From IMG/VR virus record IMGVR_UViG_3300043580_000025: DNA of 59,139 nucleotides. The stretch is one strand, 5' to 3'. The position numbers were made by a program, and so were the translations under genes. Source of the DNA: a virus. Below are positions 28,967-56,839 of the stretch, in pieces (the stretch's first letter is position 1; every line of letters begins with the position of its first letter). Below the pieces are notes generated by a model, which saw only the letters and a list, made by a program, of their open reading frames with translations, was not told the DNA's origin and did not search any database.

Positions 28967-28999
28967 TGGGCCATCGCAACCCCAAACAGAAAGCACGAA

Positions 29000-29566
29000 A
29001 TGAACGCCAACCACACATTCACCCGAGTCCGCGTGATCGAAGACGAAGCCGCTTACGAAGCCGCCATCAAGCGCCGGATCAAGAACGCCTCGCAAGACAA
29101 GTTCTTCCGCGAGAACACCGACGCCCAGGAAGTCCTCGACTGCCTGCGCCAAGCGTCCAACTGGTCCGAGTTTGCAAAATCCCTGATGGCTTCCTACGAA
29201 GAGCGCGGAACGCTAAGCCCTGCCCAATTGAACGCAGGTCGCAGCATGCTTGCCAAGCAGAAAGAAAAAGCAGCCGCGAAGGTCGCAGCCCGCAACGCAC
29301 CGGCAACCTCTGGACGCCACCTGAGCACAATCGGCCAGCGCGAGACCTTTACGCTGACGATCAATAAGCTGATGGAAATGGAAGGCATGTACGGCACCTC
29401 CTACCTGCATATTTGCGCCGACGCCAACGGCAACTCGGTGGTGTACAAAGGCACTTCGGAGCTTGGCAAGCAAGGCGAGACGGTAACGGTCAAGGCAACG
29501 ATCAAAGAGCACACTGCTTACAACGGCGTTGCCCAGACGACGATCAACCGCCCCAAAGTGCTGTAA
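29000..29566 (+). CDS. hypothetical protein (188 aa)
   Basis: ATG 6 nt after CAGAAAGC box; the track's 21-codon upstream extension is the promoter/leader. Confidence 0.8.
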   Translation: MNANHTFTRVRVIEDEAAYEAAIKRRIKNASQDKFFRENTDAQEVLDCLRQASNWSEFAKSLMASYEERGTLSPAQLNAGRSMLAKQKEKAAAKVAARNAPATSGRHLSTIGQRETFTLTINKLMEMEGMYGTSYLHICADANGNSVVYKGTSELGKQGETVTVKATIKEHTAYNGVAQTTINRPKVL

Positions 29567-29574
29567 AGCAGGCA

Positions 29575-29604
29575 AAGCCCGACCAAGCAGGTCGGGTTTA
29601 TTTA
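29575..29604 (+). terminator. rho-independent terminator
   Basis: CCCGAC-7nt-GTCGGG stem followed by TTTATTT. Confidence 0.65.
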
Positions 29605-29611
29605 GCCCCTA

Positions 29612-29641
29612 TTGCGTTACGCTTTAACCGCACGCTATAAT
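29612..29641 (+). promoter_or_regulatory. sigma70-type promoter, island cassette (33-nt class)
   Basis: TTGCGT-N18-TATAAT; 22 nt upstream block identical to 28932..28953. Confidence 0.6.
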
Positions 29642-29674
29642 TGCGCCATCGACACCCCAAACAGAAAGCAGCAA

Positions 29675-29890
29675 ATGACCTCCAAGCCCACCGCCGCCGC
29701 AGCCTACGCGATGCACGTCGCTAACATCGAAGCCCAGATCGCCACCTTGCAAGCCAAGCTCGCCAAGCACAAAACCACGCCGGTCAAGCCCGGTTCCGAC
29801 AGCTTCGCCTCCTGGGGCAAAGTAGGCGACCTCGCGCACGTCAGCGAAACCCTGACCGAGATCAACGAATTCTTCGGCAGCGCACTGTGA
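29675..29890 (+). CDS. hypothetical protein (71 aa)
   Basis: ATG 6 nt after CAGAAAGC. Confidence 0.7.
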   Translation: MTSKPTAAAAYAMHVANIEAQIATLQAKLAKHKTTPVKPGSDSFASWGKVGDLAHVSETLTEINEFFGSAL

Positions 29891-30084
29891 AAATTAACCC
29901 CCCACTCATGGCCGTCGATTACACCCTGAACGAATTGCGCGCACGCCTGCCAGCGCTGCGCGAGCAAAGGGAAAACCCCAGCGTCGCATCAAGCTACAAT
30001 CGCTTGGTCGGAAAAATCGACGCGCTGGAAGCGGTTAAACGCTTACTGGAAACCGGTTCCTACTTTGAACTGCGACTACTCTGA
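29887..30084 (+). CDS. hypothetical protein (65 aa)
   Basis: GTG start overlapping upstream stop (GTGA). Confidence 0.5.
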   Translation: MKINPPLMAVDYTLNELRARLPALREQRENPSVASSYNRLVGKIDALEAVKRLLETGSYFELRLL

Positions 30085-30094
30085 AAGGCAAAGC

Positions 30095-30289
30095 ATGAAG
30101 CAACGCGACAAGGAAAACACGGTGGACGAGATGGTCGTCTACTTTAATAGGCACCCCAACATCCGCACGGCAACTCGGACGCTAAGCGTACAGAACGTCG
30201 AAGACCTGGAGGAACTTGGCTTTCGAGTTAGGCCAGTGCGCGGTGAATCTGGCGTGTACCGCCGTTGTTTAATTGAGCGACGCGATTGA
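30095..30289 (+). CDS. hypothetical protein (64 aa)
   Basis: ATG 6 nt after TGAAAGG, in which TGA is the upstream stop. Confidence 0.6.
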   Translation: MKQRDKENTVDEMVVYFNRHPNIRTATRTLSVQNVEDLEELGFRVRPVRGESGVYRRCLIERRD

Positions 30290-30298
30290 TGGTATAAT
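30290..30298 (+). promoter_or_regulatory. extended -10 promoter, island cassette (26-nt class)
   Basis: TGgTATAAT; 26 nt to ATG 30325. Confidence 0.55.
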
Positions 30299-30324
30299 TG
30301 CGGCACACCAACAGAAAGCACAGA

Positions 30325-30513
30325 ATGAAGATCAGCAAGCAAGACCTCACGATGACCCTGGGCACCGCCGCCGACATGGTCGCACGCGCGGACAAATTTG
30401 AGCCGCACCAATTGGCAAGGGCGCGTGTTGTGGTCGCCTACTGGGCTGCGCTGCGCGCCAAGCAAGCTCGCACAAAAGCAACAAAAGCCGCAAAGACTTG
30501 CGTGACGCGATAA
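30325..30513 (+). CDS. hypothetical protein (62 aa)
   Basis: ATG 6 nt after CAGAAAGC. Confidence 0.65.
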   Translation: MKISKQDLTMTLGTAADMVARADKFEPHQLARARVVVAYWAALRAKQARTKATKAAKTCVTR

Positions 30514-30527
30514 CGCGATGCTATAAT
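30498..30527 (+). promoter_or_regulatory. sigma70-type promoter, island cassette (33-nt class)
   Basis: TTGCGT-N18-TGcTATAAT; overlaps the last codons of 30325..30513. Confidence 0.6.
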
Positions 30528-30560
30528 TGCCACATCGCAACCCCAAACAGAAAGCACCAA

Positions 30561-30821
30561 ATGACCAAAGTCAAAGCCCACCTCCTGAGCATCGCCCTGA
30601 TCAAAGGCAACCTGAAGCTGGCCGCGCACCTCGCCATGCTGGCATCCATTGAATACGGCAACACGGTCAACCTCGACAACGCCTACGCAAAGGTCAAGGA
30701 CGCGATTACGCCGAAGCAATGGTCGGGATACCTGGGCGCATTGGCAAAGGATGGTGTGTATGCACCTTGCACCGACCCGGACTTCGCTGGCTTCTACGGC
30801 ACCTTGACCACATACGCCTAA
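30561..30821 (+). CDS. hypothetical protein (86 aa)
   Basis: ATG 6 nt after CAGAAAGC. Confidence 0.7.
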   Translation: MTKVKAHLLSIALIKGNLKLAAHLAMLASIEYGNTVNLDNAYAKVKDAITPKQWSGYLGALAKDGVYAPCTDPDFAGFYGTLTTYA

Positions 30822-30827
30822 AGCAAA

Positions 30828-30845
30828 ACAGCCCGCAAGGGCTGT
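30828..30845 (+). other. GNRA-tetraloop hairpin abutting the next promoter
   Basis: ACAGCCC-GCAA-GGGCTGT; no T-tract; 3' arm supplies the TG of the next extended -10. Confidence 0.5.
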
Positions 30846-30853
30846 GCTACAAT
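30845..30853 (+). promoter_or_regulatory. extended -10 promoter, island cassette (26-nt class)
   Basis: TGcTACAAT; 26 nt to ATG 30880. Confidence 0.55.
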
Positions 30854-30879
30854 ACCTGCACACCAACAGAAAGCACAGA

Positions 30880-31089
30880 ATGAAAATCGAAACCGCCGCC
30901 GAAGTCCTCGCAACCGTCAAGGTGCTCGAAGCACGCGCACGCAAAGTGCCGAAGCCAGCGCGCAACGCCTATCACCAGATCGCCAAGCGTCGCATCGCTG
31001 ACGCGCGCCTCTTTGCCGACAAGAACCTGGACCACGCCATTGCTTGCATCCGCGAGGCACGCCACTGCTTGGAACTGATTGTGTACTGA
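30880..31089 (+). CDS. hypothetical protein (69 aa)
   Basis: ATG 6 nt after CAGAAAGC. Confidence 0.65.
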   Translation: MKIETAAEVLATVKVLEARARKVPKPARNAYHQIAKRRIADARLFADKNLDHAIACIREARHCLELIVY

Positions 31090-31098
31090 TGCTATAAT
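31090..31098 (+). promoter_or_regulatory. extended -10 promoter, island cassette (26-nt class)
   Basis: TGcTATAAT; 31093..31120 is identical to 30293..30320. Confidence 0.6.
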
Positions 31099-31124
31099 TG
31101 CGGCACACCAACAGAAAGCAGATA

Positions 31125-31385
31125 ATGACACGCAAGACAACCGAACAAATCGAAGAAGGCCGCTGGATGCGCGGCATCAACCGCGACATCGAGAAGCACG
31201 ACAAGATCAGCAAGCTCGAAGACAAGATCATCGCATCGTGCATCATTGGCACGCTCATGCGCGAAGGCAAGACGGTTCACTACATTAACTTGACGAACCG
31301 CAAAGGCCAATACACCGGCAAGATCAAGACTGGCACGCACGACGCGCTGCTCGACTACCTCATTCGCAACAAATACGTCCGCTGA
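31125..31385 (+). CDS. hypothetical protein (86 aa)
   Basis: ATG 6 nt after CAGAAAGC. Confidence 0.7.
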   Translation: MTRKTTEQIEEGRWMRGINRDIEKHDKISKLEDKIIASCIIGTLMREGKTVHYINLTNRKGQYTGKIKTGTHDALLDYLIRNKYVR

Positions 31386-31387
31386 TC

Positions 31388-31618
31388 ATGAAACACGCAA
31401 AATTCTTCGAAGCCAACCCAAACGCAACCCTGGACTTCTTTGGCAAGTTCACCCGGCAAGAGCTGCAGGCAATGAACGAGCCAGCGTGGAAGGAGCTGCG
31501 CCGCCTGGACAACACCGGCGACAAGCTAGCGTTCCGCGCCTATATGCGGCTGCACGAAGGCCCACGCGGTCTGATCAACTGCATCATGGCCGACCACGAT
31601 CTGCCGAACAGATTTTAA
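31388..31618 (+). CDS. hypothetical protein (76 aa)
   Basis: ATG 2 nt after upstream stop. Confidence 0.6.
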   Translation: MKHAKFFEANPNATLDFFGKFTRQELQAMNEPAWKELRRLDNTGDKLAFRAYMRLHEGPRGLINCIMADHDLPNRF

Positions 31619-31648
31619 TTTCCCAACCACCGCCAAAGAAAGCAAAGC

Positions 31649-32047
31649 ATGACATTCAAACTCTCAGCAGAACAAACAAGGGCGCGCGACGCGCTGGCCG
31701 TACGCCTCGAAGAGGAACGCGCCAAGGTCGACACCGCCGTGACCGACTTCAACGACGCGCTGACCATCGCGCGCAACACGCTGCAAGAAGCGCTCGACGC
31801 CTATAACGGCGTGCTTAGCGAAGCGCGCTTCTTCGCCGCCGACGTTTCCCAGGACTGGGAGAACGACTTCGAAGAGAAGTCCGAGCGTTGGCAGGAAAGC
31901 GAGAAGGGCGAAGGCGTGCGCGAGATGATCGAAGCGTGGCAAAACGTCGACCTCGAAGACCTGGAGATCGACATGCCCGACGCCGAGATCGACCTGAACG
32001 TGGACACGCACGACGAAACGCTGACCAACCTCCCGACCGAAGCGTGA
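31649..32047 (+). CDS. strongly acidic protein (132 aa)
   Basis: ATG 6 nt after AGAAAGC; about 35 D/E versus 12 K/R by manual count. Confidence 0.7.
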   Translation: MTFKLSAEQTRARDALAVRLEEERAKVDTAVTDFNDALTIARNTLQEALDAYNGVLSEARFFAADVSQDWENDFEEKSERWQESEKGEGVREMIEAWQNVDLEDLEIDMPDAEIDLNVDTHDETLTNLPTEA

Positions 32048-32060
32048 CGCGATAACAGGA

Positions 32061-32069
32061 TGCTATAAT
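32061..32069 (+). promoter_or_regulatory. extended -10 promoter, island cassette (33-nt class)
   Basis: TGcTATAAT; 33 nt to ATG 32103. Confidence 0.55.
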
Positions 32070-32102
32070 CGCATCATGCCCACCCGAAACAGAAAGCTAG
32101 AA

Positions 32103-32279
32103 ATGATGACGAACCGACCGCTCACGCTCTGGAGCCGCCGTACCAACGCCGCCGTTGGCAACCATTGGGTCGCTGAGCGCGGCGTGACCGAAGCGACCGC
32201 CCAGGAATGGCTCGCGGTGTTCCGCAAGGACGAGCCGAACGTGATTTTCGTCGCTTGCGCGCACCGGCCGCGCGGCTAA
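32103..32279 (+). CDS. hypothetical protein (58 aa)
   Basis: ATG 6 nt after CAGAAAGC. Confidence 0.6.
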   Translation: MMTNRPLTLWSRRTNAAVGNHWVAERGVTEATAQEWLAVFRKDEPNVIFVACAHRPRG

Positions 32280-32286
32280 AATTAAA

Positions 32287-32311
32287 CACGCCGTTATGGG
32301 ATAACGGCGTG
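32287..32311 (+). other. perfect 11-bp hairpin overlapping the promoter spacer
   Basis: CACGCCGTTAT-GGG-ATAACGGCGTG, immediately followed by CTATAAT. Confidence 0.7.
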
Positions 32312-32318
32312 CTATAAT
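32310..32318 (+). promoter_or_regulatory. extended -10 promoter
   Basis: TGcTATAAT; 36 nt to ATG 32355. Confidence 0.5.
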
Positions 32319-32354
32319 CGAAGCATGCAAACCACCCCCCACCTTGGAGCCCCC

Positions 32355-32609
32355 ATGAAGAAACCCGTAGGCCAGATCGAGTGGCGCGACGAAAGCGGCC
32401 GGAAACACTGGGCCGAGTTCTACTTGGCCGCTGACAACTCCTGGGGCGCGCTGAACGGTTTCCCTTTTGAGATCGAGTTCAACAAAACGGGACAAAAACG
32501 CTTTGCCCAGATTTTGCGGACGGTGGTGCACGTCGCCATCGACGAGGACGAGACCGGCAAGCCCATCACCGACAAATGGACCGTCAAGCGCACCGACTTC
32601 CCTGCCTGA
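32355..32609 (+). CDS. hypothetical protein (84 aa)
   Basis: GGAG 5 nt upstream of ATG 32355. Confidence 0.65.
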   Translation: MKKPVGQIEWRDESGRKHWAEFYLAADNSWGALNGFPFEIEFNKTGQKRFAQILRTVVHVAIDEDETGKPITDKWTVKRTDFPA

Positions 32610-32619
32610 AAGAACACCG

Positions 32620-32865
32620 ATGAACTTCCCTAGCGCTCCCGCAAACAACCCCCTGGACGCTGGCTCGCAAGCCAGCGACAAAACCTTCTTTGGCGAGTTT
32701 GACCGCTACGCCCTCTTTGCGGTCCACACGCGCTTCGACGCGGTCCAATGGTTTGTGGCCGACGCCGAGCTGCCTGACCCAGTGACCGGCAAGCCAAGCA
32801 TTATCCGGCAAGCGGCAACGCCAGAAGAAGCGGTTGCAGGGTTACGCTTTAACGACGTGCTATAA
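32620..32865 (+). CDS. hypothetical protein (81 aa)
   Basis: ATG after TGAAAGA (TGA is the upstream stop); the 3' end encodes the next promoter. Confidence 0.6.
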   Translation: MNFPSAPANNPLDAGSQASDKTFFGEFDRYALFAVHTRFDAVQWFVADAELPDPVTGKPSIIRQAATPEEAVAGLRFNDVL

Positions 32866-32866
32866 T
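32858..32866 (+). promoter_or_regulatory. extended -10 promoter, island cassette (26-nt class)
   Basis: TGcTATAAT preceded by GGTTACGCTTTAAC block; stop TAA of the upstream gene lies inside TATAAT. Confidence 0.55.
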
Positions 32867-32892
32867 CTGGGCACACCAACAGAAAGCCCAGC

Positions 32893-33048
32893 ATGAACAA
32901 GATCAAAGTCACCATCAAATGTCGCGGCCAAGCCGAAGTCACAAAGGTCGTCCACGCCGACGACCTGAGCGCCGCGATGGACATTGTCCAAAACGAGATG
33001 GAAGCCGCTGGGTTTTTTGTTGAATTCCTCAGCGCCAGCTTCGCCTAA
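32893..33048 (+). CDS. hypothetical protein (51 aa; below ORF-track cutoff)
   Basis: Translated manually: MNKIKVTIKCRGQAEV...SASFA; ATG 6 nt after CAGAAAGC and 26 nt after the -10. Confidence 0.6.
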   Translation: MNKIKVTIKCRGQAEVTKVVHADDLSAAMDIVQNEMEAAGFFVEFLSASFA

Positions 33049-33062
33049 GTAGAAAGCAAAAC

Positions 33063-33257
33063 ATGACCGCCAAGCAATACGTTATCCGCGCAACCCAGAT
33101 CAAAGGTCTGGACCTCATCAAGCCCACGAAAGGCAACCCCGGCATCCTTGCCATCGACTACACCCGCAAGGTGGGCGGCGTCCACCCCTGCGTCATCGAC
33201 GCGCGGACCTGGGCCGAAGCACAGACCCAACTCAATAACTACTACATGGTGGGCTGA
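33063..33257 (+). CDS. hypothetical protein (64 aa)
   Basis: ATG 6 nt after TAGAAAGC. Confidence 0.6.
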   Translation: MTAKQYVIRATQIKGLDLIKPTKGNPGILAIDYTRKVGGVHPCVIDARTWAEAQTQLNNYYMVG

Positions 33258-33266
33258 AGCCCTTTT

Positions 33267-33431
33267 ATGAAATACGCTCAAGAACTCCGCGCGCAGGCGC
33301 AAGCACTGCGCATCAAAGCCCGCACGATGATCGTGCTGCACGCATGGCGTCTATTGATTCAGGCCCGCCAGCTTGAAGCCGAAGCCGACGCCATCGAAGC
33401 ACGCATCGCTTTACGCGAGATGGAAGAATGA
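33267..33431 (+). CDS. hypothetical helical protein (54 aa; below ORF-track cutoff)
   Basis: Translated manually: MKYAQELRAQAQ...REMEE; ATGA overlap with the next gene. Confidence 0.5.
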   Translation: MKYAQELRAQAQALRIKARTMIVLHAWRLLIQARQLEAEADAIEARIALREMEE

Positions 33432-33874
33432 CCGCACTAACCATTGCAGAACGCCAATCGCTTTACCGCGCGCGACGCACCTTAGAAGGCAAGACCGAAG
33501 TGCGTGGTATATACTTGCAGCCAGAGCAACACGCAGCGTTGCGCGCAATTGCCCGCACGCAGATTAACCAAACCAACAGAAAGGTACCACTCATGCAACC
33601 CAGCGTCGGCGCTTTGCCGCAAACCAAGAACATGATCTTCGTCCCGGCGCACATGGCGCTTGTCGAGACGGACGCACCCACCATCGCCGTCAAGCTGGGC
33701 GAGAAGGGATATTGGCCGGTGTACCACCCGAGCCATGAAGAGTTGAACGAGCGATATGCAAGCGAAGCGGTGCTTCGATCCGCAGTGCAGGCGTCGATGT
33801 TTGGATGGGATGCACCTATCGCACGCGAAGCAATCGAGTGGCTCGCAGAAGCAGACGATGCGTCGGCCGCGTGA
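33428..33874 (+). CDS. hypothetical protein (148 aa) with possible internal start at 33593
   Basis: In-frame CAGAAAGG box 9 nt before internal ATG 33593. Confidence 0.65.
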   Translation: MTALTIAERQSLYRARRTLEGKTEVRGIYLQPEQHAALRAIARTQINQTNRKVPLMQPSVGALPQTKNMIFVPAHMALVETDAPTIAVKLGEKGYWPVYHPSHEELNERYASEAVLRSAVQASMFGWDAPIAREAIEWLAEADDASAA

Positions 33875-36612: not shown

Positions 36613-36617
36613 TTGTG

Positions 36618-36626: not shown

Positions 36627-36662
36627 CTGGGCTGGATTTAACGCAAACAGAAAGGCACCAAC

Positions 36663-42631: not shown

Positions 42632-44428
42632 TCACATTTCAGCGCCTTGATCTAGTTCAGCGCCGCTGCCGCTGCCGTTCGCCTCGCGGTATAGCTGCAC
42701 GCCTCGCGGTGATAGCCGGACCCATCGCAGATTTGGTCCTGTCTTGCCGTGCGCCACTTTCATCGGTGGCATTTTGTATTCGACTGGCGGTTCGACTTCA
42801 TCATCGATCCACACGCGCTCTCTTTCTTTGCAATAAACAAGAAGGTACTTTTTCTTTCTTGGCATCTTGATGCCTTCAGCGTCGCACCATCGCCTGTACA
42901 TAGCAAAGAGTGCAGTTGCGCTAACCTCGCGCCGTTGAAACCCTTCTTTTAACGCTGCCCACTTCGCGCGCTTTTCTTCTGATCCACCTGAACCTGCGAG
43001 TAGGTCTAGCTCGCTCGTTTCTGCAAGCCCGATATATTCTGTCGCCTCTTGAATGAACGCACCGAATTCATCCATCTCTTGTCGGTGTGCAGCAATTTGT
43101 CGTTTGATGCTGTCTGGCACCTTAATTCCATAGGCGAGATATTTAGGAACGGCGCTAACCATCCAGCGCAGCAGCACGGAGCGTCCCTCTGGTGTTTTGC
43201 ATTTCTCCAGTAGCAGTTGATCCCACAGATATTTCGCCGTCCCTGCTTCGACTTCTTCTTCAGGTCCGAATCGTGCTGGCGTCGCGGTCAGATATACGCG
43301 TGCCCATACCGCATCATCCTCGGCCACGATAATTGGTTTGTAGTTTGTCGCGAGCGTGATCTTATGCGTGCTCTGAGTCGTTTTATAGTTCTGATGCGAA
43401 GAGCGTGCGTTGATCGTATCGTCGCCAGTGATTGACTTGATGACCTCTGGTCTTAGATCAGAATGCTCGCGCGTCTCGGACCCATGTGCGAAGCGTATGC
43501 CATCCAACCCGGCCAGCGCAAACTGATCGTTATTGTCGGTGTTCCTTTTCGATTCCAAGAAGCCAAGCGGGAGTTTATAGGCGTAGGAGCCAAGGCAAGT
43601 AGCGACCGAATCAATGAGCAAGCTCTTGCCGTTGCGTGTTTTGCCAAACAGGATCATGAGTGCGTGATCCCTGCGCAAGCCGGTGCAGCAATAGCCGAAC
43701 CATTTATGTGCGAACTCGTATATCTGATCGTCGCCGTCGAATATCTTTCGGACGGCGTCTTCGAACCATTTGTAATCGATGTCTGGGTCATAGACCGTGC
43801 GTGTGCTTCGCGTCAAATAATCCGAAGGCTTCCACCATGACAACTCGCCGGTGCGAAGGTCGAGCAATCCGTTCGCACAATTCAGCTTTAGGCGATCTGG
43901 ATTCATGGTGACGCGTCTTGTCATGTGCAGCGTCTTCAAATGGTTATAGGCCATCGTAGAGATTGCGGCTATCGTATTAGCGCGGCTCCAGCGGATCACC
44001 AGCTTCCTCAATTGATCAAGCTCGCGCGTCAGGCGGTCCCGATCTTCCGGTGTTGCCAAGTTAAGCGCAGCCTGCGTAGCAGCATATCCTTCGCGGATAA
44101 CATCTTTCCACATCGTCCCCATCCACGCGTTAATTGCTTCGCGCACGCCATCGGTCGTCCACATTCCAGTTTCTTCGCGATAGATGGAAAGCTCGCTCTT
44201 ACCTGAATCCTGACTCGAGTCATCCATGCAAAACAGGTGTCCGTACTTGCTGATGAATGCGTGTTTAAGATCGACGTCTAGGATGCCCAGGCCGTCTGCT
44301 GTCGCGTGATCTTCTAAGTTAGGAGTTGCGACCTTGAAGCGAATAGTTTTTGGTTTTAACCTTTCTCGTCTCTCCCTTTCTAGTCTTTCTGGATCGTTCA
44401 TTCGCTCGTCGAACTCTTCGGGATTCAT
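42632..44428 (-). CDS. SF3 helicase (D5 / P4-primase C-terminal type)
   Basis: Walker A FGKTRNGKS, LATNYKP region; ATGA coupling to the primase gene. Confidence 0.85.
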   Translation of the reverse strand: MNPEEFDERMNDPERLERERRERLKPKTIRFKVATPNLEDHATADGLGILDVDLKHAFISKYGHLFCMDDSSQDSGKSELSIYREETGMWTTDGVREAINAWMGTMWKDVIREGYAATQAALNLATPEDRDRLTRELDQLRKLVIRWSRANTIAAISTMAYNHLKTLHMTRRVTMNPDRLKLNCANGLLDLRTGELSWWKPSDYLTRSTRTVYDPDIDYKWFEDAVRKIFDGDDQIYEFAHKWFGYCCTGLRRDHALMILFGKTRNGKSLLIDSVATCLGSYAYKLPLGFLESKRNTDNNDQFALAGLDGIRFAHGSETREHSDLRPEVIKSITGDDTINARSSHQNYKTTQSTHKITLATNYKPIIVAEDDAVWARVYLTATPARFGPEEEVEAGTAKYLWDQLLLEKCKTPEGRSVLLRWMVSAVPKYLAYGIKVPDSIKRQIAAHRQEMDEFGAFIQEATEYIGLAETSELDLLAGSGGSEEKRAKWAALKEGFQRREVSATALFAMYRRWCDAEGIKMPRKKKYLLVYCKERERVWIDDEVEPPVEYKMPPMKVAHGKTGPNLRWVRLSPRGVQLYREANGSGSGAELDQGAEM

Positions 44429-45393
44429 GTATTATCTCCATAGAAAGGTCCGCGCGTGCGCTGGCCCAATCGAATAACTTCATCAGCGACCCAGGACTCG
44501 AGGTCGCCCCAGTTGCGTGTCTCGCAATGGCCGTGGTGGCACTTGAAGCCGCCCATGTAGCCATTCTTTTTCATAGGGGGTGCCACGGCAGCGCCGGTGT
44601 TTGCGCGGGCGGTATGTCCATCGATCCAAGGACACGTAATATCCATCCATCCAGACCCCGTCGAATTCTTGACGCGCTTGAGCAGCTTGAGCGCTTCCTT
44701 GACGATCTCGTATCCGCGTTTGCGTTCGATGGTCACACCGTCAGTTGGCTCAGCGTAGTTCCGGTGGCGTTCGACGAGGTGGAATGTTCTGGTGAAGTCT
44801 TGCCAAGAGGTGCGGATGCTTGGATTCCATTGCCACACCCTGCAGCGCCAAGGCTTGCCGTCGACAAGCGACGTCGGCTTGCCGTTGATGCCTTCAGGCA
44901 AGCGCAGCACGCGGGTTACGCCTGCCATACCTGGATCAGCGCCGCCGCCTGTTAGCTTCTCGATGATCAGGCGAATGGCGTCTGTGACGTGGTCGACGTC
45001 AGCGCGCGGTTCGTCCAAGAAGAACGACGCCTGGAAGTTCCCAGGCGATGTCTCGATGACCAACGTTGGTTGAAGCTCGCGCGGGATATCCGCGAGCGAG
45101 ATCTTTGTACCAATGTCATCGATCATAATGCACCACGTTCGACTGAACTGCGCCTTGCGCCGTTTGAATCGACCTTCTTCTTCATGGAACGAACTGATCG
45201 CTACATAATTATTTCGGTCGTGGTGCAAAGGACAAGCAACGCCGTTATGCCACGGCACGCCGATCCATGCTTTAGGGTCAGCCTCGCTCGGATTCCCTTT
45301 TAATGAGCAGAGGATGGCTCGTTCATCTGGTCCTAAACCTTTGAAAAGTTCGGCCAGCACAATGTCGTTGGTCACGCCAACTTGGAGGGGCAC
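44425..45393 (-). CDS. primase-polymerase (RepB'-like) with Cys/His zinc motif
   Basis: VIETSPGNFQ motif, CPW..GH...CHHGHC; GTG start preceded by two CAGAAAG boxes. Confidence 0.7.
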   Translation of the reverse strand: MPLQVGVTNDIVLAELFKGLGPDERAILCSLKGNPSEADPKAWIGVPWHNGVACPLHHDRNNYVAISSFHEEEGRFKRRKAQFSRTWCIMIDDIGTKISLADIPRELQPTLVIETSPGNFQASFFLDEPRADVDHVTDAIRLIIEKLTGGGADPGMAGVTRVLRLPEGINGKPTSLVDGKPWRCRVWQWNPSIRTSWQDFTRTFHLVERHRNYAEPTDGVTIERKRGYEIVKEALKLLKRVKNSTGSGWMDITCPWIDGHTARANTGAAVAPPMKKNGYMGGFKCHHGHCETRNWGDLESWVADEVIRLGQRTRGPFYGDNT

Positions 45394-45446
45394 TTTCTGG
45401 ACCTTTCTGGTGTTGCTGCTGGGCTAGCCCGTAGGCTTGGCCCTAC

Positions 45447-45474
45447 ATTCTACTCGATTTTCCTGGGATGGCAA
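45447..45474 (-). promoter_or_regulatory. leftward early promoter (primase/helicase operon)
   Basis: Minus strand TTGCCA-N16-TAGAAT. Confidence 0.55.
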
Positions 45475-45525: not shown

Positions 45526-45555
45526 CCGGCCACCCGCAAACCAGAAAGGTCAGAA

Positions 45556-45810
45556 ATGGAATTGAACTGCTTATTCGAAAACGCCCGCTACATCGTCTGC
45601 CAGATCAAAGGCAGTGGTGCGCTCCATAGCGAAGGCATCGAAGTCGTCAGCAAAGAGAATCACTGCGCCGCGTACCTTACCGGCAGCATGAGAAAAGTCT
45701 TCATGCGTCAGATGAAAAGCTGGCGCGCACAAACCCCGAACGAAGATGAAGTCGAAGCGCGCCTCGACGAGTTTCTCGTGCTCAACACGAACCCCCTTGT
45801 CCTGCACTAG
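45556..45810 (+). CDS. hypothetical protein (84 aa)
   Basis: ATG after CAGAAAGG. Confidence 0.7.
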   Translation: MELNCLFENARYIVCQIKGSGALHSEGIEVVSKENHCAAYLTGSMRKVFMRQMKSWRAQTPNEDEVEARLDEFLVLNTNPLVLH

Positions 45811-45831
45811 CGGACAAACAGAAAGCCAGAA

Positions 45832-47929: not shown

Positions 47930-47984
47930 CGTCCGATTATCCTCTACAATACTCAATCTTTCACCCCTAGAAAGGGAGCCAATC

Positions 47985-48350: not shown

Positions 48351-48375
48351 TCACCCCACTTAGAAAGGACGAAAG

Positions 48376-49078: not shown

Positions 49079-49283
49079 ACAGGATCGAGATTATATCGAG
49101 CTTGTCACCGGCATGACATTCACGGTGCTTGCCGCGAACACCGATGGCACGCTCAACACCGAGACGGTGCTGGAGGTGCTGGGCACGGAAGTGCCGTGCG
49201 TTGTGTACTATAATCCGCACCATATTACGAAGACAATCGTGTGTGCAGAGACTGCATTTAGAGAAAGGTTCGAAGAGAAATGA
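49059..49283 (+). CDS. hypothetical protein (74 aa)
   Basis: AGGAG 8 nt upstream of ATG 49059. Confidence 0.6.
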   Translation: MIHGPIKQDRDYIELVTGMTFTVLAANTDGTLNTETVLEVLGTEVPCVVYYNPHHITKTIVCAETAFRERFEEK

Positions 49284-49885
49284 ACGACGACAACATACCC
49301 AACTTCAGCGACTTCACGGACGGCGCAGCCCCAGACTTCAGCGGTGTCGAAGCCGAGCCGCCGCGCGAGGACCACTTGCAGATGCTTGGCTCAATGGCTG
49401 CGAAGCTGCGCGAGAAGATCAACGCCGTCGCAGACGCCCAGGCCAAGCTCGACCTCCTGACCGCCGACCTGAACCGGTACCAGCTTGGCGTCTTGCCTGA
49501 AGCGATGGAGCTAGCCGGTGTTGCGGACTACACGCTGACCGATGGCACGCGGCTTCTCATGCGACCGGACGTCAAGGCCAGCATCAGCATCGACAACCGC
49601 CCGTTCGCACACGGCTGGTTGCGCGAGAATGGCCACGGCGGCGTCGTGAAAGAATCTTTTCTGGTAGACTTGCGCACGTTGACCCCAGCGCAGCGCACGC
49701 AGCTTTATCACTCCATCATGGCTACGTACGAAGTGATGCCCGAGGTTCAAGAGTCAGTGCACGCAGCGACGCTGAAGTCGCTGGTAAAGGAATTGCTGGA
49801 GAAAGGCACCGCCCTGCCGCCTTCCATCAGCGTGTTTCAGTTCAAAAAGGCAGAGTTAAAAGAGATCAAGAAAGCGACGAAATGA
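49280..49885 (+). CDS. hypothetical protein (201 aa), recombination-module position
   Basis: ATGA overlaps on both sides; coiled-coil N-terminus; function not recognised. Confidence 0.7.
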   Translation: MNDDNIPNFSDFTDGAAPDFSGVEAEPPREDHLQMLGSMAAKLREKINAVADAQAKLDLLTADLNRYQLGVLPEAMELAGVADYTLTDGTRLLMRPDVKASISIDNRPFAHGWLRENGHGGVVKESFLVDLRTLTPAQRTQLYHSIMATYEVMPEVQESVHAATLKSLVKELLEKGTALPPSISVFQFKKAELKEIKKATK

Positions 49886-50742: not shown

Positions 50743-50744
50743 TC

Positions 50745-51182: not shown

Positions 51183-51317
51183 CTCGCGAGGTGGTTGATG
51201 GAACTCCGGCCGCATGAGCACTGAAGACTAATCTGCCACACGCCCTGCGATCTACAAACAGAGTGGCTTGAGCCTGGGTATGCCGAGAAAACTGCCCACC
51301 TCCAACAGAAAGGAATT

Positions 51318-51883: not shown

Positions 51884-51884
51884 C

Positions 51885-51986: not shown

Positions 51987-52336
51987 GCCATCCATTCTAC
52001 GACAGGCCCGATTGCATTATCACTGGCTGCTGGTTCCACAGCCCAGCAGAAAGCAAGCGCCTGCGCGCGGACCTGCACCGCCTGGGAGACTGCTACATCA
52101 TTGTGGGCAACAGGAACGACGTTGGCGAGGCCGACTGGCAATACCTGGAGCCGCCCCATTACGACAGGATCATTTCGGTCGACTACCCCGACCATTATTT
52201 CGAGCGCCGGGGGATCGTCATGTTTACCACCCGATCAGCCATTTTCAATAAGGTTGCAGAAGACTATATCGCGGGCAATATGCGCCTCCCGGAGCCGCCG
52301 CCCACGTACCCAGACACGGCAGGCGACGCCGCCTGA
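51983..52336 (+). CDS. hypothetical protein (117 aa)
   Basis: ORF in the operon chain. Confidence 0.6.
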   Translation: MSHPFYDRPDCIITGCWFHSPAESKRLRADLHRLGDCYIIVGNRNDVGEADWQYLEPPHYDRIISVDYPDHYFERRGIVMFTTRSAIFNKVAEDYIAGNMRLPEPPPTYPDTAGDAA

Positions 52337-52460
52337 CGCAATCGCGCTACACTTTGTTGCATCTCACTTTCGATCAAAAGGGAGGAAGCGTCGAGTTCTG
52401 GATTACATTACTTATATCGCAACAACGCGATGCAAACACGAAGCACAGAAAGGCTTACCC

Positions 52461-53354: not shown

Positions 53355-53363
53355 AACCAGCCC

Positions 53364-53400
53364 GCAGGCACCTGCAAGACCCATGCAGGTGCCTGCATTT
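53364..53400 (+). terminator. terminator-like hairpin
   Basis: 13-bp perfect stem GCAGGCACCTGCA / TGCAGGTGCCTGC, 7-nt loop, then ATTT. Confidence 0.55.
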
Positions 53401-53463
53401 CCTCCTGAAGTCCTCCTGACTTCATCCTGAAGTCCTCCCGCCGCCCCCAGAAAGGAATGAGCC

Positions 53464-53673
53464 GTGCCCATTGACCGCGCCAACCGCCCCTACGATCCCC
53501 AGGAAGCCCGCAGGCGCAGCGAAGACGCCGCCGCCAAGCCGGTGTGGCGTCCCAACCTGACGCCCCCGCCCAAGCCCGGTGTTGGCCTGGGCCTGCTCCT
53601 CTGGACGCTGGCCGCAGCCGGGATCACCTTCTTCATCATCGTCCTCGCCTTGGTCATGTACCTGCGCGCATGA
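53464..53673 (+). CDS. small membrane protein (69 aa)
   Basis: GTG after CAGAAAGG; one hydrophobic helix. Confidence 0.55.
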   Translation: MPIDRANRPYDPQEARRRSEDAAAKPVWRPNLTPPPKPGVGLGLLLWTLAAAGITFFIIVLALVMYLRA

Positions 53674-53975
53674 CTACACCGGCCGCTTTATCCTGCCCGT
53701 TTTGCGGCAGCGCGAACGTTTACACGCAAGAGGGAAGCACCTTCCGCTGGATGCTGGCCGAATGCCAAAACTGCGGTGCACGAGGCCCCGAGGTGCGTGT
53801 ACAAACGCTAGGCAAAGGCACGCGCGAGGAATGGCTCGCCAAAGGTCGCGCCAACGCTATCGCTGAGTGGAATAGCCGCGCCGAGACGCCCCAGGACATC
53901 CCCACGCCGCGCAGCAAGCCCGGTCCAACCCGCGACAGGCCGACCGAGCCGCGCGAGCCCAAGCCCAAAATTTAG
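53670..53975 (+). CDS. Lar-like restriction alleviation protein
   Basis: CPFCG...CQNCG...AIAEWNSR pattern; ATGA overlap. Confidence 0.7.
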   Translation: MTTPAALSCPFCGSANVYTQEGSTFRWMLAECQNCGARGPEVRVQTLGKGTREEWLAKGRANAIAEWNSRAETPQDIPTPRSKPGPTRDRPTEPREPKPKI

Positions 53976-54000
53976 CCCGTCAGTGCCCGTGCGGCTGGGC

Positions 54001-54006
54001 TATAAT
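54001..54006 (+). promoter_or_regulatory. -10 box of a cassette of the 26-nt class
   Basis: TATAAT, 26 nt to ATG 54033, leader CCAACAGAAAG as in the island. Confidence 0.45.
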
Positions 54007-54032
54007 CAAAGCCCCCAACAGAAAGTTTCCTC

Positions 54033-54287
54033 ATGAAATTGTGCATCACCGCGCTCAACGACGACGAATCCCTTATCCCTTACTACCCACTCACGGCCAC
54101 CGGCGACGAAGAAGAGTTGACGCACCTGATGAATCAGGTGATCCTCGACGATGTACATCTCGAACAAGAATCTGTGCGGTGCAACATGATGGGCCAGTTG
54201 CCCACCAACGCTAGGCTGCACCAGTTAGTCGCTTGGGTCAATCGGCACAGTCGCGATCTAGAGGTGCAATTAGTCATAAACGACTGA
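54033..54287 (+). CDS. hypothetical protein (84 aa)
   Basis: ATG after CAGAAAG. Confidence 0.65.
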   Translation: MKLCITALNDDESLIPYYPLTATGDEEELTHLMNQVILDDVHLEQESVRCNMMGQLPTNARLHQLVAWVNRHSRDLEVQLVIND

Positions 54288-54384
54288 CCAGCAAAATATT
54301 TTCGCCAAATCGCCAGAAGCGGGCAAATTTCGATTACATTAAATGCATCGGCGCAGCGGTTGCGCCGAAAACAGAAAGCACGAA

Positions 54385-54606
54385 ATGATTAAGCACCTCG
54401 AACTGACGCCCGCCAAGACCTACGTTTCCCGCGACAACGCCATCAAGGCAGTCGAAAAGACCTTCGGCCCGCGCGTCACCGCCGAGAACGGCGAGCGCCT
54501 TGACTTTGTCATTGTGGCGAACGCCGAAGGCCGCTTCTTCCCGATGTTTTTGGGCGAACGTGCATTGCAAGCCGGGATGCACTTCCACTTTTGCGTCGCT
54601 AATTAA
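54385..54606 (+). CDS. hypothetical protein (73 aa)
   Basis: ATG 6 nt after CAGAAAGC. Confidence 0.65.
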   Translation: MIKHLELTPAKTYVSRDNAIKAVEKTFGPRVTAENGERLDFVIVANAEGRFFPMFLGERALQAGMHFHFCVAN

Positions 54607-54646
54607 ACAAAAGAGAGGGCGCTATACGCGCCCCAGGAGAACAACT

Positions 54647-54976
54647 ATGTCGTATTTCAAGAATATCCCGCCCCGTCCCAACTGCATCTTTTGCGGCAAG
54701 CCCGTCGCAGACGAGGCCTGGGACGAAGAGTCGCACGGCTGGTTCAGCTATGGACCGAACTGCATGATGTCGCACCCGCAAGGCCGGTACGCCGTCAAGA
54801 TGACCGAGGGCGAATTGTCGATCATCTATGCGGTCAAGCTGACCACGCTGGCCCGCGCGGTGTCGATGGCCGACTACCTGACGCGGTCCAACCCGCAATA
54901 CAAAGGCAAAGTAAAGTTCGAAGCTGTCGACCTGGGCAAAGGCATCAGCTACGAGTGCAAGACCAACCACCACTAA
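54647..54976 (+). CDS. hypothetical protein (109 aa) with CxxC
   Basis: AGGAGA SD. Confidence 0.7.
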   Translation: MSYFKNIPPRPNCIFCGKPVADEAWDEESHGWFSYGPNCMMSHPQGRYAVKMTEGELSIIYAVKLTTLARAVSMADYLTRSNPQYKGKVKFEAVDLGKGISYECKTNHH

Positions 54977-54992
54977 GCAGGAGATTAAAACA

Positions 54993-55193
54993 ATGAGCTT
55001 TGAGAACTACGCCGCCAGCATCGCAGAGAAGGCAGAGGCACGTGCCGCCGCAATGGCAGCGATGCAGCCGCTTTACGAAGCCGCACGCAAGCGCATCCTG
55101 CCTGATCTGAAGGATCATGGACTGGTGGAGGCCATCCGCCGCCATGAGATGCGCAAGCTCGCGATTGATCGCGCTATCAACGAGACACTTTGA
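54993..55193 (+). CDS. hypothetical protein (66 aa)
   Basis: AGGAG SD. Confidence 0.6.
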   Translation: MSFENYAASIAEKAEARAAAMAAMQPLYEAARKRILPDLKDHGLVEAIRRHEMRKLAIDRAINETL

Positions 55194-55297
55194 AACACTC
55201 AAGCTGGCGAACTGAGCAATTCAGCGTCGCCAGCGCCTATAATCCAAACACCGCAGCAATTGTTGCAGCGGAATTACCCCACCAGAAAGGCTACCCC

Positions 55298-56104
55298 ATG
55301 AACAAGCTCCTCGCCCTGACCAACACCGACATCGCCCAATACGCTCCGAGCATTTTTGCCGACGAGCCAGCACCCGGTGCCTCCTCCCGCTACCAATTTG
55401 TGCGCACCATTGAGGTGATCGACACCATGCGCAACGCCGGTTTCGAAGTTGTCCAAGCGTCGCAGTCAAAGACCTACAGCGCCGAGAAAAAGCCTTATGC
55501 GAAGCACCTTGTCCGGCTGGTGCATCGCGACTACCTTGAAGGCAAACTGCAGGTCGGTGATTTTGTCCCAGAGATCGCCATGACGAACAGCCACAACCGC
55601 ACGTCGGCCTACCACATGATGGCCGCGCTGAAGGTGCTGGCCTGCCTTAACGGCATGATGCTTCCCTCAGCGCAATACGGCAACATCCGCGTCTTGCACA
55701 ATGACCCGCGCATGATGGACCACATCATTGACGGCACGGACCTGATCCGCGAAGTGCACATGAACCACGCGCTGCCGCGCATCGAGCGCATGAAGCAGAT
55801 CGAATTGAGCAAGCAGCAAGCAGTCGATTTTGCGACTGGTGCGACGCTGCTGAAGTGGGGCGAAAAGCGCCCAGACCACGCCGATGGCCTGCTCTCGGTG
55901 CGCCGCGCGGAAGACGATAGCAACACGCTCTGGAGCGTCTTCAACCGCGTCCAAGAAAACGCCATGAAGGGCGGCTACCTCGCCCAGGATCGCGGTGGCC
56001 GCAACGTGAAGACCGCAGGGATCAACTCGGTCAACCGCGACATCGACTTCAACGCAGGCATCTGGACCTTTGCCAACCGCGTGCTGGACATCGTCGCCGC
56101 TTAA
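55298..56104 (+). CDS. DUF932-like protein
   Basis: N-terminus LLALTNTDIAQYAPSIFADEP..SSRYQFVRTIEVID resembles DUF932; ATG after CAGAAAGG. Confidence 0.6.
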   Translation: MNKLLALTNTDIAQYAPSIFADEPAPGASSRYQFVRTIEVIDTMRNAGFEVVQASQSKTYSAEKKPYAKHLVRLVHRDYLEGKLQVGDFVPEIAMTNSHNRTSAYHMMAALKVLACLNGMMLPSAQYGNIRVLHNDPRMMDHIIDGTDLIREVHMNHALPRIERMKQIELSKQQAVDFATGATLLKWGEKRPDHADGLLSVRRAEDDSNTLWSVFNRVQENAMKGGYLAQDRGGRNVKTAGINSVNRDIDFNAGIWTFANRVLDIVAA

Positions 56105-56150
56105 GAATAGAATGGGGCTTCGGCCCCAGCCCCCAACAGAAAGGTACATC

Positions 56151-56405
56151 ATGCTTCGCATCAGCCACCACACCGCCGTCGCCGCCTTGACGGAATCGGA
56201 TTATCCTTTTATCTTTACCGGCGAGGCTTCGAGCCTGGACATGGTGCCCGGTGAATGGCCCGAATCGTTTGAGCTTGTCGACTTCCCTATCGGCAACGAC
56301 AAACCCTTTTTCCGATTCAAGGACATTGTCGAAGCCGACGAACTCGTCGCTGTCGAATACCGGCAGCAAGACGGCACCATAACCATCCGCGTCTACAACG
56401 ACTGA
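56151..56405 (+). CDS. hypothetical protein (84 aa)
   Basis: ATG after CAGAAAGG. Confidence 0.65.
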   Translation: MLRISHHTAVAALTESDYPFIFTGEASSLDMVPGEWPESFELVDFPIGNDKPFFRFKDIVEADELVAVEYRQQDGTITIRVYND

Positions 56406-56406
56406 C

Positions 56407-56619
56407 ATGACGGTCCTACCCTGGGCCAAGTGGCCTGCGCTCCAGAAGGAGCGCGTGCGCCGAGAGGTCGGATTGCGCATGGACGCCGCGCACGTCGGCA
56501 CGCGCCACGAGATCATCTGCGCAGCGCTCTACGAGCTTTATCCATACGCCGTCACGGACGCAACCTACGACGACCTTGTCCGCGATATCTACGCCGACAT
56601 CAAAAGCAACCAGCAATAA
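56407..56619 (+). CDS. hypothetical protein (70 aa)
   Basis: starts 1 nt after the upstream stop. Confidence 0.55.
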   Translation: MTVLPWAKWPALQKERVRREVGLRMDAAHVGTRHEIICAALYELYPYAVTDATYDDLVRDIYADIKSNQQ

Positions 56620-56629
56620 GAGAACATCA

Positions 56630-56809
56630 ATGGGATATCTAATCACGCACGCACTTGCCAATGGGCTAACCGCCAACCTCTCGGTTGCCCGCGCAGGTCA
56701 ATACGCCATCTATGACGCGACAGGGAAGTTTTTGGCCTATGCGAAGAGCATCAAAGCGGCCCAGGAATTCGCAAAGAATTTCTCGGTTCCGCTTGCGGCT
56801 GGACTATAA
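56630..56809 (+). CDS. hypothetical protein (59 aa)
   Basis: internal ATG of track ORF 56576..56809. Confidence 0.45.
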   Translation: MGYLITHALANGLTANLSVARAGQYAIYDATGKFLAYAKSIKAAQEFAKNFSVPLAAGL

Positions 56810-56810
56810 T
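56805..56810 (+). promoter_or_regulatory. -10 box containing the upstream stop codon
   Basis: TATAAT; 29 nt to ATG 56840. Confidence 0.4.
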
Positions 56811-56839
56811 CAAGCACCAACCCAGAAAGGCAAAACAGA

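Follow-up and report, generated by a model that had tools for sequence, protein, structure and literature searches.

The DNA analyzed here is a stretch of 59,139 nucleotides (nt), IMG/VR record IMGVR_UViG_3300043580_000025, referred to below as the window. It is the 59-kb genome (57.7% G+C) of an uncultured soil phage seen in metagenomes only, and our subject is a short motif, (C/T)AGAAAG, designated the box, that recurs a few nucleotides ahead of start codons in one class of its genes. Gene blocks were delimited by our own scoring of open reading frames (ORFs) together with public gene calls on identical contigs, and are listed in Table 1 with the other features under discussion. Both ends of the window fall inside the plus-strand replication gene block, with genes running across them. 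A DUF4055 portal, a Phage_tube_2 protein, a tape measure and a DNA polymerase A characterize the phage, whose tail module is of non-contractile type. In the structural and lysis block, called late below, start sites read AAGGAG, AGGAG, GGAGG or AGGTGATC 5-9 nt before the starts; extended -10 promoters are lacking from this block, and just one of its genes (24604) follows a GAAAG box.

Distribution of the box

An earlier note on this DNA had listed 26 positions for the box, and all 26 carry it; two further copies, at 49262 and 49869, had been missed. The word CAGAAAG occurs 27 times on the two strands together (24 plus, 3 minus), against 6.9 +/- 2.4 in dinucleotide shuffles, none of which reached 27. 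The stricter form AGAAAG-N6-ATG is found 12 times where 0.31 copies are expected, always on the plus strand and always with C directly after the box, and these are exactly the twelve AGAAAGC-N5-ATG sites that the note had picked out. All 15 copies of the string AACAGAAAG are on the plus strand. The note was also right about the TGAAAG variants at 30082 and 32607, which overlap the TGA stops of upstream genes, about the pair of minus-strand copies ahead of the primase gene (45393-45399 and 45403-45409), and about the canonical sites of the late genes starting at 27691, 26753, 26362, 23394, 20037 and 15571.

For an unbiased view, all hexamers were ranked by their frequency 4-11 nt ahead of ATGs with open frames of 50 codons or more. 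AGAAAG came out on top for the plus strand, with 25 of its 39 copies in that interval (p = 4e-26), so that the claimed tie to start codons holds and the box sits where a ribosome-binding site belongs. The best canonical word on this strand was CAGGAG (5 of 13 copies), and the top minus-strand hexamers were AGGAGA (7 of 8) and AAGGAG (5 of 6). The spacer from box to ATG has its mode at 6 nt and ranges from 5 to 12 nt, and the starts concerned match those of public gene calls.

Gene-level counts give the same split. With public-pipeline starts on identical contigs, a GAAAG box precedes 25 of 48 plus-strand genes and 2 of 36 minus-strand genes (Fisher p = 3.7e-6), while a GGAG-type site alone precedes 9 of 48 and 20 of 36, respectively (p = 1e-3); in our own gene set the box stands before 24 of 47 plus-strand and 1 of 35 minus-strand genes (p = 1.3e-6). 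The restriction to early genes that the note had proposed is therefore strong but not absolute, as six plus-strand genes use (CA)GGAG instead. Plus-strand genes without a box (48875, 49059, 54647, 54993 and 57131) tend to have CAGGAG in a similar A/C-rich context, and CAGGAG is a second flavor of ribosome-binding site inside the same gene class.

Public calls start two of the genes farther upstream, at codons without a ribosome-binding site (ATG 54343 and TTG 55190). The box-defined ATGs 54385 and 55298 look like the real starts; the latter is used by a second public call and gives a 268-residue product. Three AGAAAG copies lie within 30 nt at 44366-44395 on the minus strand, in the 5' part of the D5 helicase reading frame (about codons 13 to 22) and with no start codon after them; these probably just encode a stretch rich in Lys, Arg and Glu.

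Table 1. Coordinates of gene blocks, boxes, promoters and cassettes in the window. Distances are from the end of AGAAAG to the start codon.
Feature	Position	Strand	Remarks
Gene block	28.9-37.1 kb	+	many small ORFs and three methyltransferase-like genes
Gene block	45.4-37.1 kb	-	RepB-type primase, D5 helicase, terminase, portal, MuF
Gene block	45.5 kb to window end to 2.4 kb	+	SNF2 helicase, DUF932, Lar, DNA polymerase A
Structural/lysis (late) block	28.5-2.4 kb (2430..28517)	-	capsid, tail tube, 1483-aa tape measure, 2195-aa protein, holin, endolysin
AGAAAG box	28988..28993	+	6 nt before ATG 29000 (188-aa ORF); cassette D1
AGAAAG box	29663..29668	+	6 nt before ATG 29675; cassette D1
GAAAGG variant (TGAAAGG)	30083..30088	+	before ATG 30095; TGA is the stop of the upstream gene
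AGAAAG box	30313..30318	+	6 nt before ATG 30325; cassette D4
AGAAAG box	30549..30554	+	6 nt before ATG 30561; cassette D1
AGAAAG box	30868..30873	+	6 nt before ATG 30880; cassette D4
AGAAAG box	31113..31118	+	6 nt before ATG 31125; cassette D4
AGAAAG box (AAAGAAAG)	31637..31642	+	6 nt before ATG 31649; no promoter upstream
AGAAAG box	32091..32096	+	6 nt before ATG 32103; cassette D1
GAAAG variant (TGAAAGA)	32608..32612	+	before ATG 32620; TGA is the stop of the upstream gene
AGAAAG box	32881..32886	+	6 nt before ATG 32893; cassette D4
TAGAAAG box	33051..33056	+	6 nt before ATG 33063; no promoter upstream
AGAAAGG box	33578..33584	+	9 nt before ATG 33593
AGAAAGG box	36649..36655	+	8 nt before ATG 36663; TGCTACAAT 22 nt upstream
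Two CAGAAAG boxes	45393..45409	-	before RepB-type primase gene (GTG 45393, or 45375 in public call), head of minus-strand operon
AGAAAGG box	45543..45549	+	7 nt before ATG 45556 (DUF3567 protein); promoter TTGACA...TGCTACAGT upstream
AGAAAG box	45820..45825	+	6 nt before ATG 45832; no promoter upstream
TAGAAAGG box	47969..47975	+	10 nt before ATG 47985
TAGAAAGGA box	48362..48369	+	8 nt before ATG 48376
AGAAAGG box	49262..49268	+	12 nt before ATG 49280; absent from earlier list
AGAAAG box	49869..49874	+	7 nt before ATG 49882; absent from earlier list
AGAAAGGA box	51307..51314	+	5 nt before ATG 51318
AGAAAGG box	52447..52453	+	8 nt before ATG 52461
AGAAAGGA box	53449..53456	+	9 nt before GTG 53464
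AGAAAG box	54020..54025	+	7 nt before ATG 54033
AGAAAG box	54373..54378	+	6 nt before ATG 54385
AGAAAGG box	55284..55290	+	8 nt before ATG 55298 (DUF932 protein)
AGAAAGG box	56138..56144	+	7 nt before ATG 56151
AGAAAGG box	56824..56830	+	10 nt before ATG 56840
Genes with (CA)GGAG	32355, 48875, 49059, 54647, 54993, 57131	+	public starts
Sigma-70-like promoter of primase operon	45447..45474	-	TTGCCA-16 nt-TAGAAT, read directly from sequence
Cassette D1, reference copy	28939..29012	+	74 nt, 4 copies; others at 29614, 30500, 32042
Cassette D4, reference copy	30845..30898	+	54 nt, 4 copies; others at 30290, 31090, 32858
Dyad CGTTA-N5-TAACG	28940-28954, 29615-29629, 32292-32306, 32841-32855		early promoters
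Dyad, variants	30501-30515, 32043-32057		early promoters

Promoters, cassettes and leaders

Sigma-70 promoters directly upstream of boxes had been overlooked in the earlier note. A -10-like hexamer lies 10-47 nt upstream of 16 of the 26 boxes, compared with 6% of random positions, and is lacking from the other 10. The usual upstream element is an extended -10, TGCTATAAT, the strict pattern of which has 12 plus-strand copies and no minus-strand copy. The primase operon is the sole minus-strand operon whose first gene carries the box, and it too has a good sigma-70 promoter (Table 1). Promoter type therefore defines the gene class that carries the box better than strand does. Because box genes, including the minus-strand primase, carry sigma-70 promoters, the box appears to mark genes read by unmodified host RNA polymerase; judging from gene content and promoters, these are presumably the early and middle genes. 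In the promoter-bearing cases the box starts 14 or 21 nt after the -10 element, at about +8 or +15 of a very short leader, and so does not lie at the transcript 5' end.

Many of these promoters belong to repeats. Cassette D1 consists of a dyad CGTTA-N5-TAACG, an extended -10 of the TGCTATAAT type, a 21-nt A/C-rich leader, the box, 6 nt and the ATG; cassette D4 consists of an extended -10, 14 nt (ending ..CACACCAAC), the box, 6 nt and the ATG. All twelve exact-form sites are real, but eight of them sit in these two repeat families (74 and 54 nt) and are not independent of each other. The near-identity of the AGAAAGC-N5-ATG form is thus explained in part by the many boxes that lie in a repeated promoter-leader cassette bordering on hypervariable small ORFs, and the spacing that the note had called invariant partly reflects the same repeats, although 6 nt is indeed the spacer mode. 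Across 15 related contigs, DNA conservation between 28.9 and 33.5 kb peaks sharply on the cassettes, and most of the intervening ORFs are absent from the relatives; a more divergent relative, about 71-73% identical in nucleotide sequence in shared genes, has the same arrangement with other ORFs. This pattern suggests that the early region (28900-33600) is a mosaic in which cassettes may mediate gene shuffling. A search with the promoter-leader cassettes found no match in any cultured phage. The cassettes do not explain the box itself, because ten boxes lack a promoter and the leaders of the right arm keep AGAAAG(G) despite divergence of their flanks.

The dyad CGTTA-N5-TAACG ends 4-5 nt before the extended -10 element TGCTATAAT of six early promoters and is kept as CCGTTAC..TAACGG in the divergent relative. 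One possibility is that a repressor of early transcription uses it as an operator; another is that it forms a small hairpin in place of the -35. GC-rich hairpins at 30828-30845 and 32285-32313 lie directly upstream of, or overlap, the -35 region of two early promoters and abut the -10 element; they may be terminators of the preceding small gene, in an arrangement that resembles one known from T4-type phages (see below). Other cassette copies carry the short dyad only, and no such hairpin.

Related genomes give a fuller picture of the leader. We collected 141 distinct box-ATG contexts from 24 related contigs, a count that overstates the number of independent events, since the instances are partly orthologous or cassette copies. 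Among 40 distinct variants of orthologous leaders, 35 keep AGAAAG while the flanks diverge, and in the right arm nearly every flanking position differs. Four of the five exceptions read CGAAAG or TGAAAG: the base that varies is the first, which lies opposite the terminal U of the ribosomal RNA (rRNA), and the core is GAAAG. No drift to GGAAG, GAGAG or similar words was seen among the 40 variants. In the 141 contexts, positions -7 to -2 before the box are A/C-rich and -1 is mostly C (76%, with T in a further 8%). The extra conserved C that the earlier note had placed after the box does not survive this comparison, as the relatives show C in 42%, G in 36% and A in 19%; it is confined to the cassettes of the present genome. 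Just ahead of the ATG, A is favored (68-79% at -2 and -1).

The distance from the box to the start codon depends on the base that follows the box. Where this is C or A, the spacer between AGAAAG and ATG is 6 nt in 66 of 88 contexts; where it is G, giving AGAAAGG, the box lies 7-12 nt from the ATG, with a median of 8 rather than 6 nt. Counted from the last complementary base, the unpaired spacer is about 6-7 nt for AGAAAG and AGAAAGG alike, the same as after the late AAGGAG and AGGAG. Early leaders (-25 to -1) are composed of 43% A, 31% C, 19% G and 7% T. Their predicted mean probability of being unpaired over -15 to -4 is 0.70, versus 0.46 for late leaders, and the predicted medians over -15 to +3 are 0.68 and 0.49 (p = 2e-6). 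A scan of the whole collection for CCAACAGAAAG-N6-ATG gave for the most part isolated chance matches; only two contigs were enriched, and both are relatives. In a hexamer scan of six cultured phages (two each of Variovorax and Pseudomonas, one each of Janthinobacterium and Bordetella), the start-associated words were of AGGAG type, not AGAAAG. At the level of coding strands rather than leaders, the plus-strand (early) genes show an AT skew of up to +0.30 and a negative GC skew, an asymmetry that the late blocks do not have.

Proposed pairing with the 16S rRNA tail and the alternatives

The position, spacing, accessibility and sequence-specific conservation of the box all point to a ribosome-binding site. 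As the earlier note had pointed out, AGAAAG(G) is the exact complement of (C)CUUUCU-3', and Shine-Dalgarno (SD) words of this kind have a precedent: AGAAAG, UAGAAAG and AGAAAGG are catalogued as tail-pairing SDs specific to Bacillus subtilis, and such words are also documented for gp6 and gp7 of phage phi29, where gp6 depends on UAGAAAG (PMC5427494). Tails ending in CCUCCUUUCU(A) have been mapped in several phyla, including in the betaproteobacterium Neisseria meningitidis (PMC6288834). We assign a probability of roughly 60% to the reading that the box is a weak SD variant, placed on a structure-free leader and pairing with the terminal 3' bases of the host 16S rRNA. The box (C/T)AGAAAG, with core GAAAG, would then be the ribosome-binding site of those genes in this phage clade that are expressed from host sigma-70-type promoters: a large number of small early ORFs, the methyltransferases, and the replication genes for the most part, with the primase operon of the minus strand among them. 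It would pair with the last 5-7 nt of a 16S rRNA ending in ...CCUCCUUUCU-3' rather than with the CCUCC core. As the leaders, made almost only of A and C, are predicted to be largely unpaired, a weak duplex about 6 nt from the ATG should suffice. Structural and lysis genes use core SDs (AAGGAG and similar) instead. That the host 16S rRNA ends in CUUUCU, and that pairing with this tail drives initiation, we infer. For a generic ...CCUCCUUUCU tail, predicted duplex energies are -4.1 kcal/mol for AGAAAG, -7.2 for AGAAAGG, -5.2 for GGAG and -6.6 for AAGGAG; against a UUA tail of Escherichia coli type, AGAAAG is predicted to yield only -0.1 kcal/mol. As 10 of 26 boxes lack a -10-like hexamer upstream, the box is independent of the promoter.

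A protein might be the partner instead of, or in addition to, the ribosome. The box would then be mainly or additionally a class-specific post-transcriptional site, at which a RegA-like repressor or a RegB-like endoribonuclease recognizes GAAAG and switches the early class. The strict invariance of a 5-6 base core with no drift to other purine-rich SD-like words would suit such a site, and so would the restriction of the box to sigma-70-driven genes on both strands; the A-rich stretch after the box (A 68-79% at -2 and -1) loosely resembles the RegB consensus GG*AGRAYARAA, and some 25 small early ORFs of no known function could encode the factor. The families that one would look for, RegA, RegB, S1 or those resembling initiation factors, are nevertheless absent from the precomputed Pfam hits on public gene calls and from Pfam and PHROGs scans of 20 proteins, where most small ORFs have no hit of any kind. 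The RegA-like regulator that the earlier note had offered as an alternative thus has no detectable representative in these hits, and the T-poor box upstream of the ATG is also unlike the A+U-rich RegA operators, which overlap the AUG (PMC3014915). Base pairing is favored over a protein site because only the first A of the box varies, and because the box shifts outward when complementarity extends by a G; pairing predicts this shift in distance to the ATG, and a fixed protein site does not. Protein recognition would be compatible with the box acting as an SD as well, but as the principal explanation we regard it as unlikely.

Still less likely, in our estimate, is a mismatched host tail, for example of the UUA type found in Pseudomonas, with SD-free initiation on A/C-rich leaders and with the distal face of Hfq, ribosomal protein S1 or another rRNA segment as the partner. 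The distal face of Hfq recognizes A-R-N triplets, and the consensus AAC AGA AAG fits (A-R-N)3. The A/C content of the leaders is extreme and they are predicted to stay unpaired, a spacing of 6 nt is short for tail pairing, and both the closest portal homologs and part of the DNA similarity of the terminase gene lie in Pseudomonas phages. The N positions of the triplets are invariant across the 141 contexts and the orthologous leaders, however, and recognition by Hfq has no such need. At 7% T, the leaders also differ from the U-rich RNA preferred by S1 (PMC6288834). Pseudomonas phage Medea1 has 29 AGAAAG and 21 GAAAGG copies, none of which falls in the interval 4-11 nt ahead of an ORF-opening ATG. 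Coincidence would also have to account for a box that sits at the SD position and is perfectly complementary, over 6-7 nt, to the 16S tail most common among bacteria. It is very improbable that the box has no function of its own and merely hitchhikes in a promoter-leader cassette spread by recombination or duplication. Such a history would account for the eight of twelve exact-form copies found in the 74-nt and 54-nt families, and for conservation that peaks on cassettes while the ORFs between them are replaced in relatives. It is largely refuted by the ten boxes without promoter and cassette and by orthologous right-arm leaders that keep AGAAAG(G) at an SD-like distance despite diverged flanks, and it does not account for the arrangement kept by the relative at about 71-73% nucleotide identity.

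Other leads were tried and set aside. The product of the first right-arm gene, an 84-residue DUF3567 protein (45556-45810, plus strand) kept in relatives, has a homolog named initiation factor 1 (IF-1) in one JGI record. This name is unsupported: BLASTP of the protein against E. coli IF1 gave no match, and its AlphaFold model (pLDDT 85; four strands and two helices) has no significant match in the PDB. Rfam finds no known RNA family in the window. A trans-acting antisense RNA with CUUUCU as its seed was also considered; apart from box complements there are few CTTTCT copies, and on inspection none has a plausible small-RNA context.

Several observations weigh against pairing with the 16S tail, in addition to the overcounting of contexts in relatives mentioned above. 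Its premise requires CUUUC at the mature 3' end of the host 16S rRNA; CCUCCUUA exemplifies an ending without it, and a host with a UUA tail (Pseudomonas-like or enterobacteria-like) could not pair with the box. The register would be unusually start-proximal. With a tail ending in UCU, the rRNA 3' end and the start codon have a working distance of 12-23 nt, and phi29 gp6 has a distance of 19 on a tail written 1 nt longer, or about 18 on the present scale (PMC5427494). In the commonest class here it is 12 nt, at the lower edge of that range; the AGAAAGG class has 13-18 nt, and late genes of the same phage have 14-18 nt, 2-6 nt more than the commonest class. Complementarity never runs into the core, as all four bases follow AGAAAGG. 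Among the late SDs, the tail-specific A is not preferred ahead of AAGG; an attempt to deduce the host tail from them was given up, the base before AAGG[A/T]G being C in 11, G in 8, A in 8 and T in 5 cases after removal of stop overlaps (TAA-GGAG). Cultured betaproteobacterial phages (of Variovorax, Janthinobacterium and Bordetella) use GAAAGGAG-type extensions and no stand-alone AGAAAG. A CUUUCU tail alone therefore cannot explain the box habit, and may be a necessary but not a sufficient reason for it. The search for the host itself found no tRNA genes to point to one, and no relative of the portal in 185,579 species genomes.

Other clues to the host are indirect. Its sigma-70 should be ordinary, because the promoters are canonical extended -10 elements (TGCTATAAT), which argues against an SD-blind host among the Bacteroidota; the lysis genes, a holin and an endolysin of lysozyme type, are such as phages of Gram-negative bacteria carry, and the host is apparently Gram-negative. 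Similarity to the nearest cultured phages is limited to single proteins, 37-56% identical, and these phages have mixed hosts (Pseudomonas, Variovorax, Stenotrophomonas, Caulobacter and others), and tblastn of the portal, capsid, endolysin, tail protein, DNA polymerase and D5 helicase gave distant matches with mixed hosts or none. The closest portal homologs are in Pseudomonas phages, and the terminase gene has DNA similarity to Pseudomonas phages among others. Medea1, the best portal match at 46% amino acid identity, was rejected as a relative, being a lambdoid temperate phage of unrelated architecture. The C or T at -1 (C+T 84%) would pair with a G following CUUUCU. Genes for 16S rRNA that read CCTCCTTTCTG are common in Comamonadaceae, Azospirillum and other soil taxa, and a scan for GGATCACCTCCTTTCTG, with one genome per species, matched many Comamonadaceae (Variovorax, Acidovorax, Comamonas, Polaromonas, Limnohabitans, Hydrogenophaga, Ottowia) as well as Azospirillum, Stella, Gemmatimonadales and Hymenobacter. 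These taxa are a lead rather than an identification; the mature 3' end may stop before that G. The G+C content of the phage, 57.7%, is below that of two Variovorax phages (61.7% and 65.9%).

The start-region strings of a record titled "UNVERIFIED: Variovorax phage VPv64" (PV558795.1) are almost identical to those of Pseudomonas aeruginosa phage Baskent_P4_1 (PP992516.1). On these strings the two are close relatives despite their different host labels, and the VPv64 label calls for care. At the tail and lysis end of the structural block, a gene for a 666-residue protein (4527-6527, minus strand) found no match by tblastn against 50,697 phage records and none among the PHROGs; its product may be a novel receptor-binding protein.

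Comparison with known systems and implications

The nearest known counterparts are the SD_Bs motifs of B. subtilis and of phi29 gp6 and gp7, identical words that stand upstream of starts and complement the rRNA 3' of CCUCC (Abolbaghaei et al. 2017, PMC5427494; Silke et al. 2018, PMC6288834). A further resemblance is that in both cases a phage uses the words for essential genes. The tail-type SD is thus already known as a kind of element. What differs here is that the box is no occasional variant but serves about half of one gene class and almost never the other, that it stands alone and is never extended into GGAGG, that it lies 6-8 nt from the ATG with an rRNA-end distance of 12-14 nt (18-19 nt in phi29, on a tail 1 nt longer), and that the host is apparently Gram-negative. 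New, therefore, are the near-exclusive, class-wide use, the apparently Gram-negative host, the start-proximal register and the separation from the GGAG sites of structural genes.

Phage T4 offers two comparisons at the level of regulation. Its RegB protein is an endoribonuclease that cuts the GGAG SDs of early mRNAs (PMC3014915), and the box resembles its targets in being an early-class ribosome-binding word followed by an A-rich stretch, which might allow shut-off of the early class as a block. The motif here is GAAAG rather than GGAG/U, however, GGAG being typical of the late genes, and no RegB/RelE-like protein is detectable by Pfam on public calls or by direct scans. The RegA operators of T4 are likewise unstructured, and many early and middle mRNAs have them in their initiation regions (PMC3014915), but they are A+U-rich, poorly conserved and overlap the AUG, whereas the box is free of T, invariant, and ends 5-12 nt before the ATG.

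The cassettes recall the early promoter and stem-loop (PeSL) elements of T4-type phages, mobile cassettes of an early sigma-70 promoter and a stem-loop that flank small variable ORFs (Arbiol et al. 2010, PMC2839356; PMC4122927). Here too early-promoter cassettes, of 50-75 nt, are repeated before small ORFs, and they are conserved while the ORFs between them differ among relatives. This is analogy and not membership, as the phage lineage, with its 59-kb genome and non-contractile-type tail module, is unrelated. The 5' leader and ribosome-binding site are also part of the present cassette; a candidate terminator hairpin is clear at some copies only, and the dyad CGTTA-N5-TAACG takes the -35 position instead. 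Recombination or mini-circles have been demonstrated for the PeSL of T4-type phages.

If the proposed pairing is correct, this phage clade would be a naturally occurring example of a whole gene class that relies on the 16S nucleotides beyond CCUCC, a part of the anti-SD usually deemed marginal outside the Firmicutes, and the box would become a predictor of host range from sequence, since hosts would need a CUUUCU tail. One could go further and view the two dialects of ribosome-binding site as a translational switch, with early mRNAs needing the last nucleotides of 16S rRNA (CUUUCU) and late mRNAs its CCUCC core. We consider this distinctly improbable, a speculation rather than an expectation. 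Were it true, trimming or masking of the rRNA tail, or a phage nuclease or repressor specific for the box, would silence the early class at once and spare late translation. The logic would resemble that of RegB, but the motif would be new and so, possibly, would the target, namely the ribosome itself. On the practical side, the box helps to annotate the starts of small early ORFs in related metagenomic phages, where two public calls appear to miss the box start, and the promoter, leader and ribosome-binding site together form a compact, structure-free cassette usable as an expression part. For the biology of these phages, the partition by promoter class and type of ribosome-binding site makes it testable whether phages time expression through the ribosome-binding site, beyond transcription.

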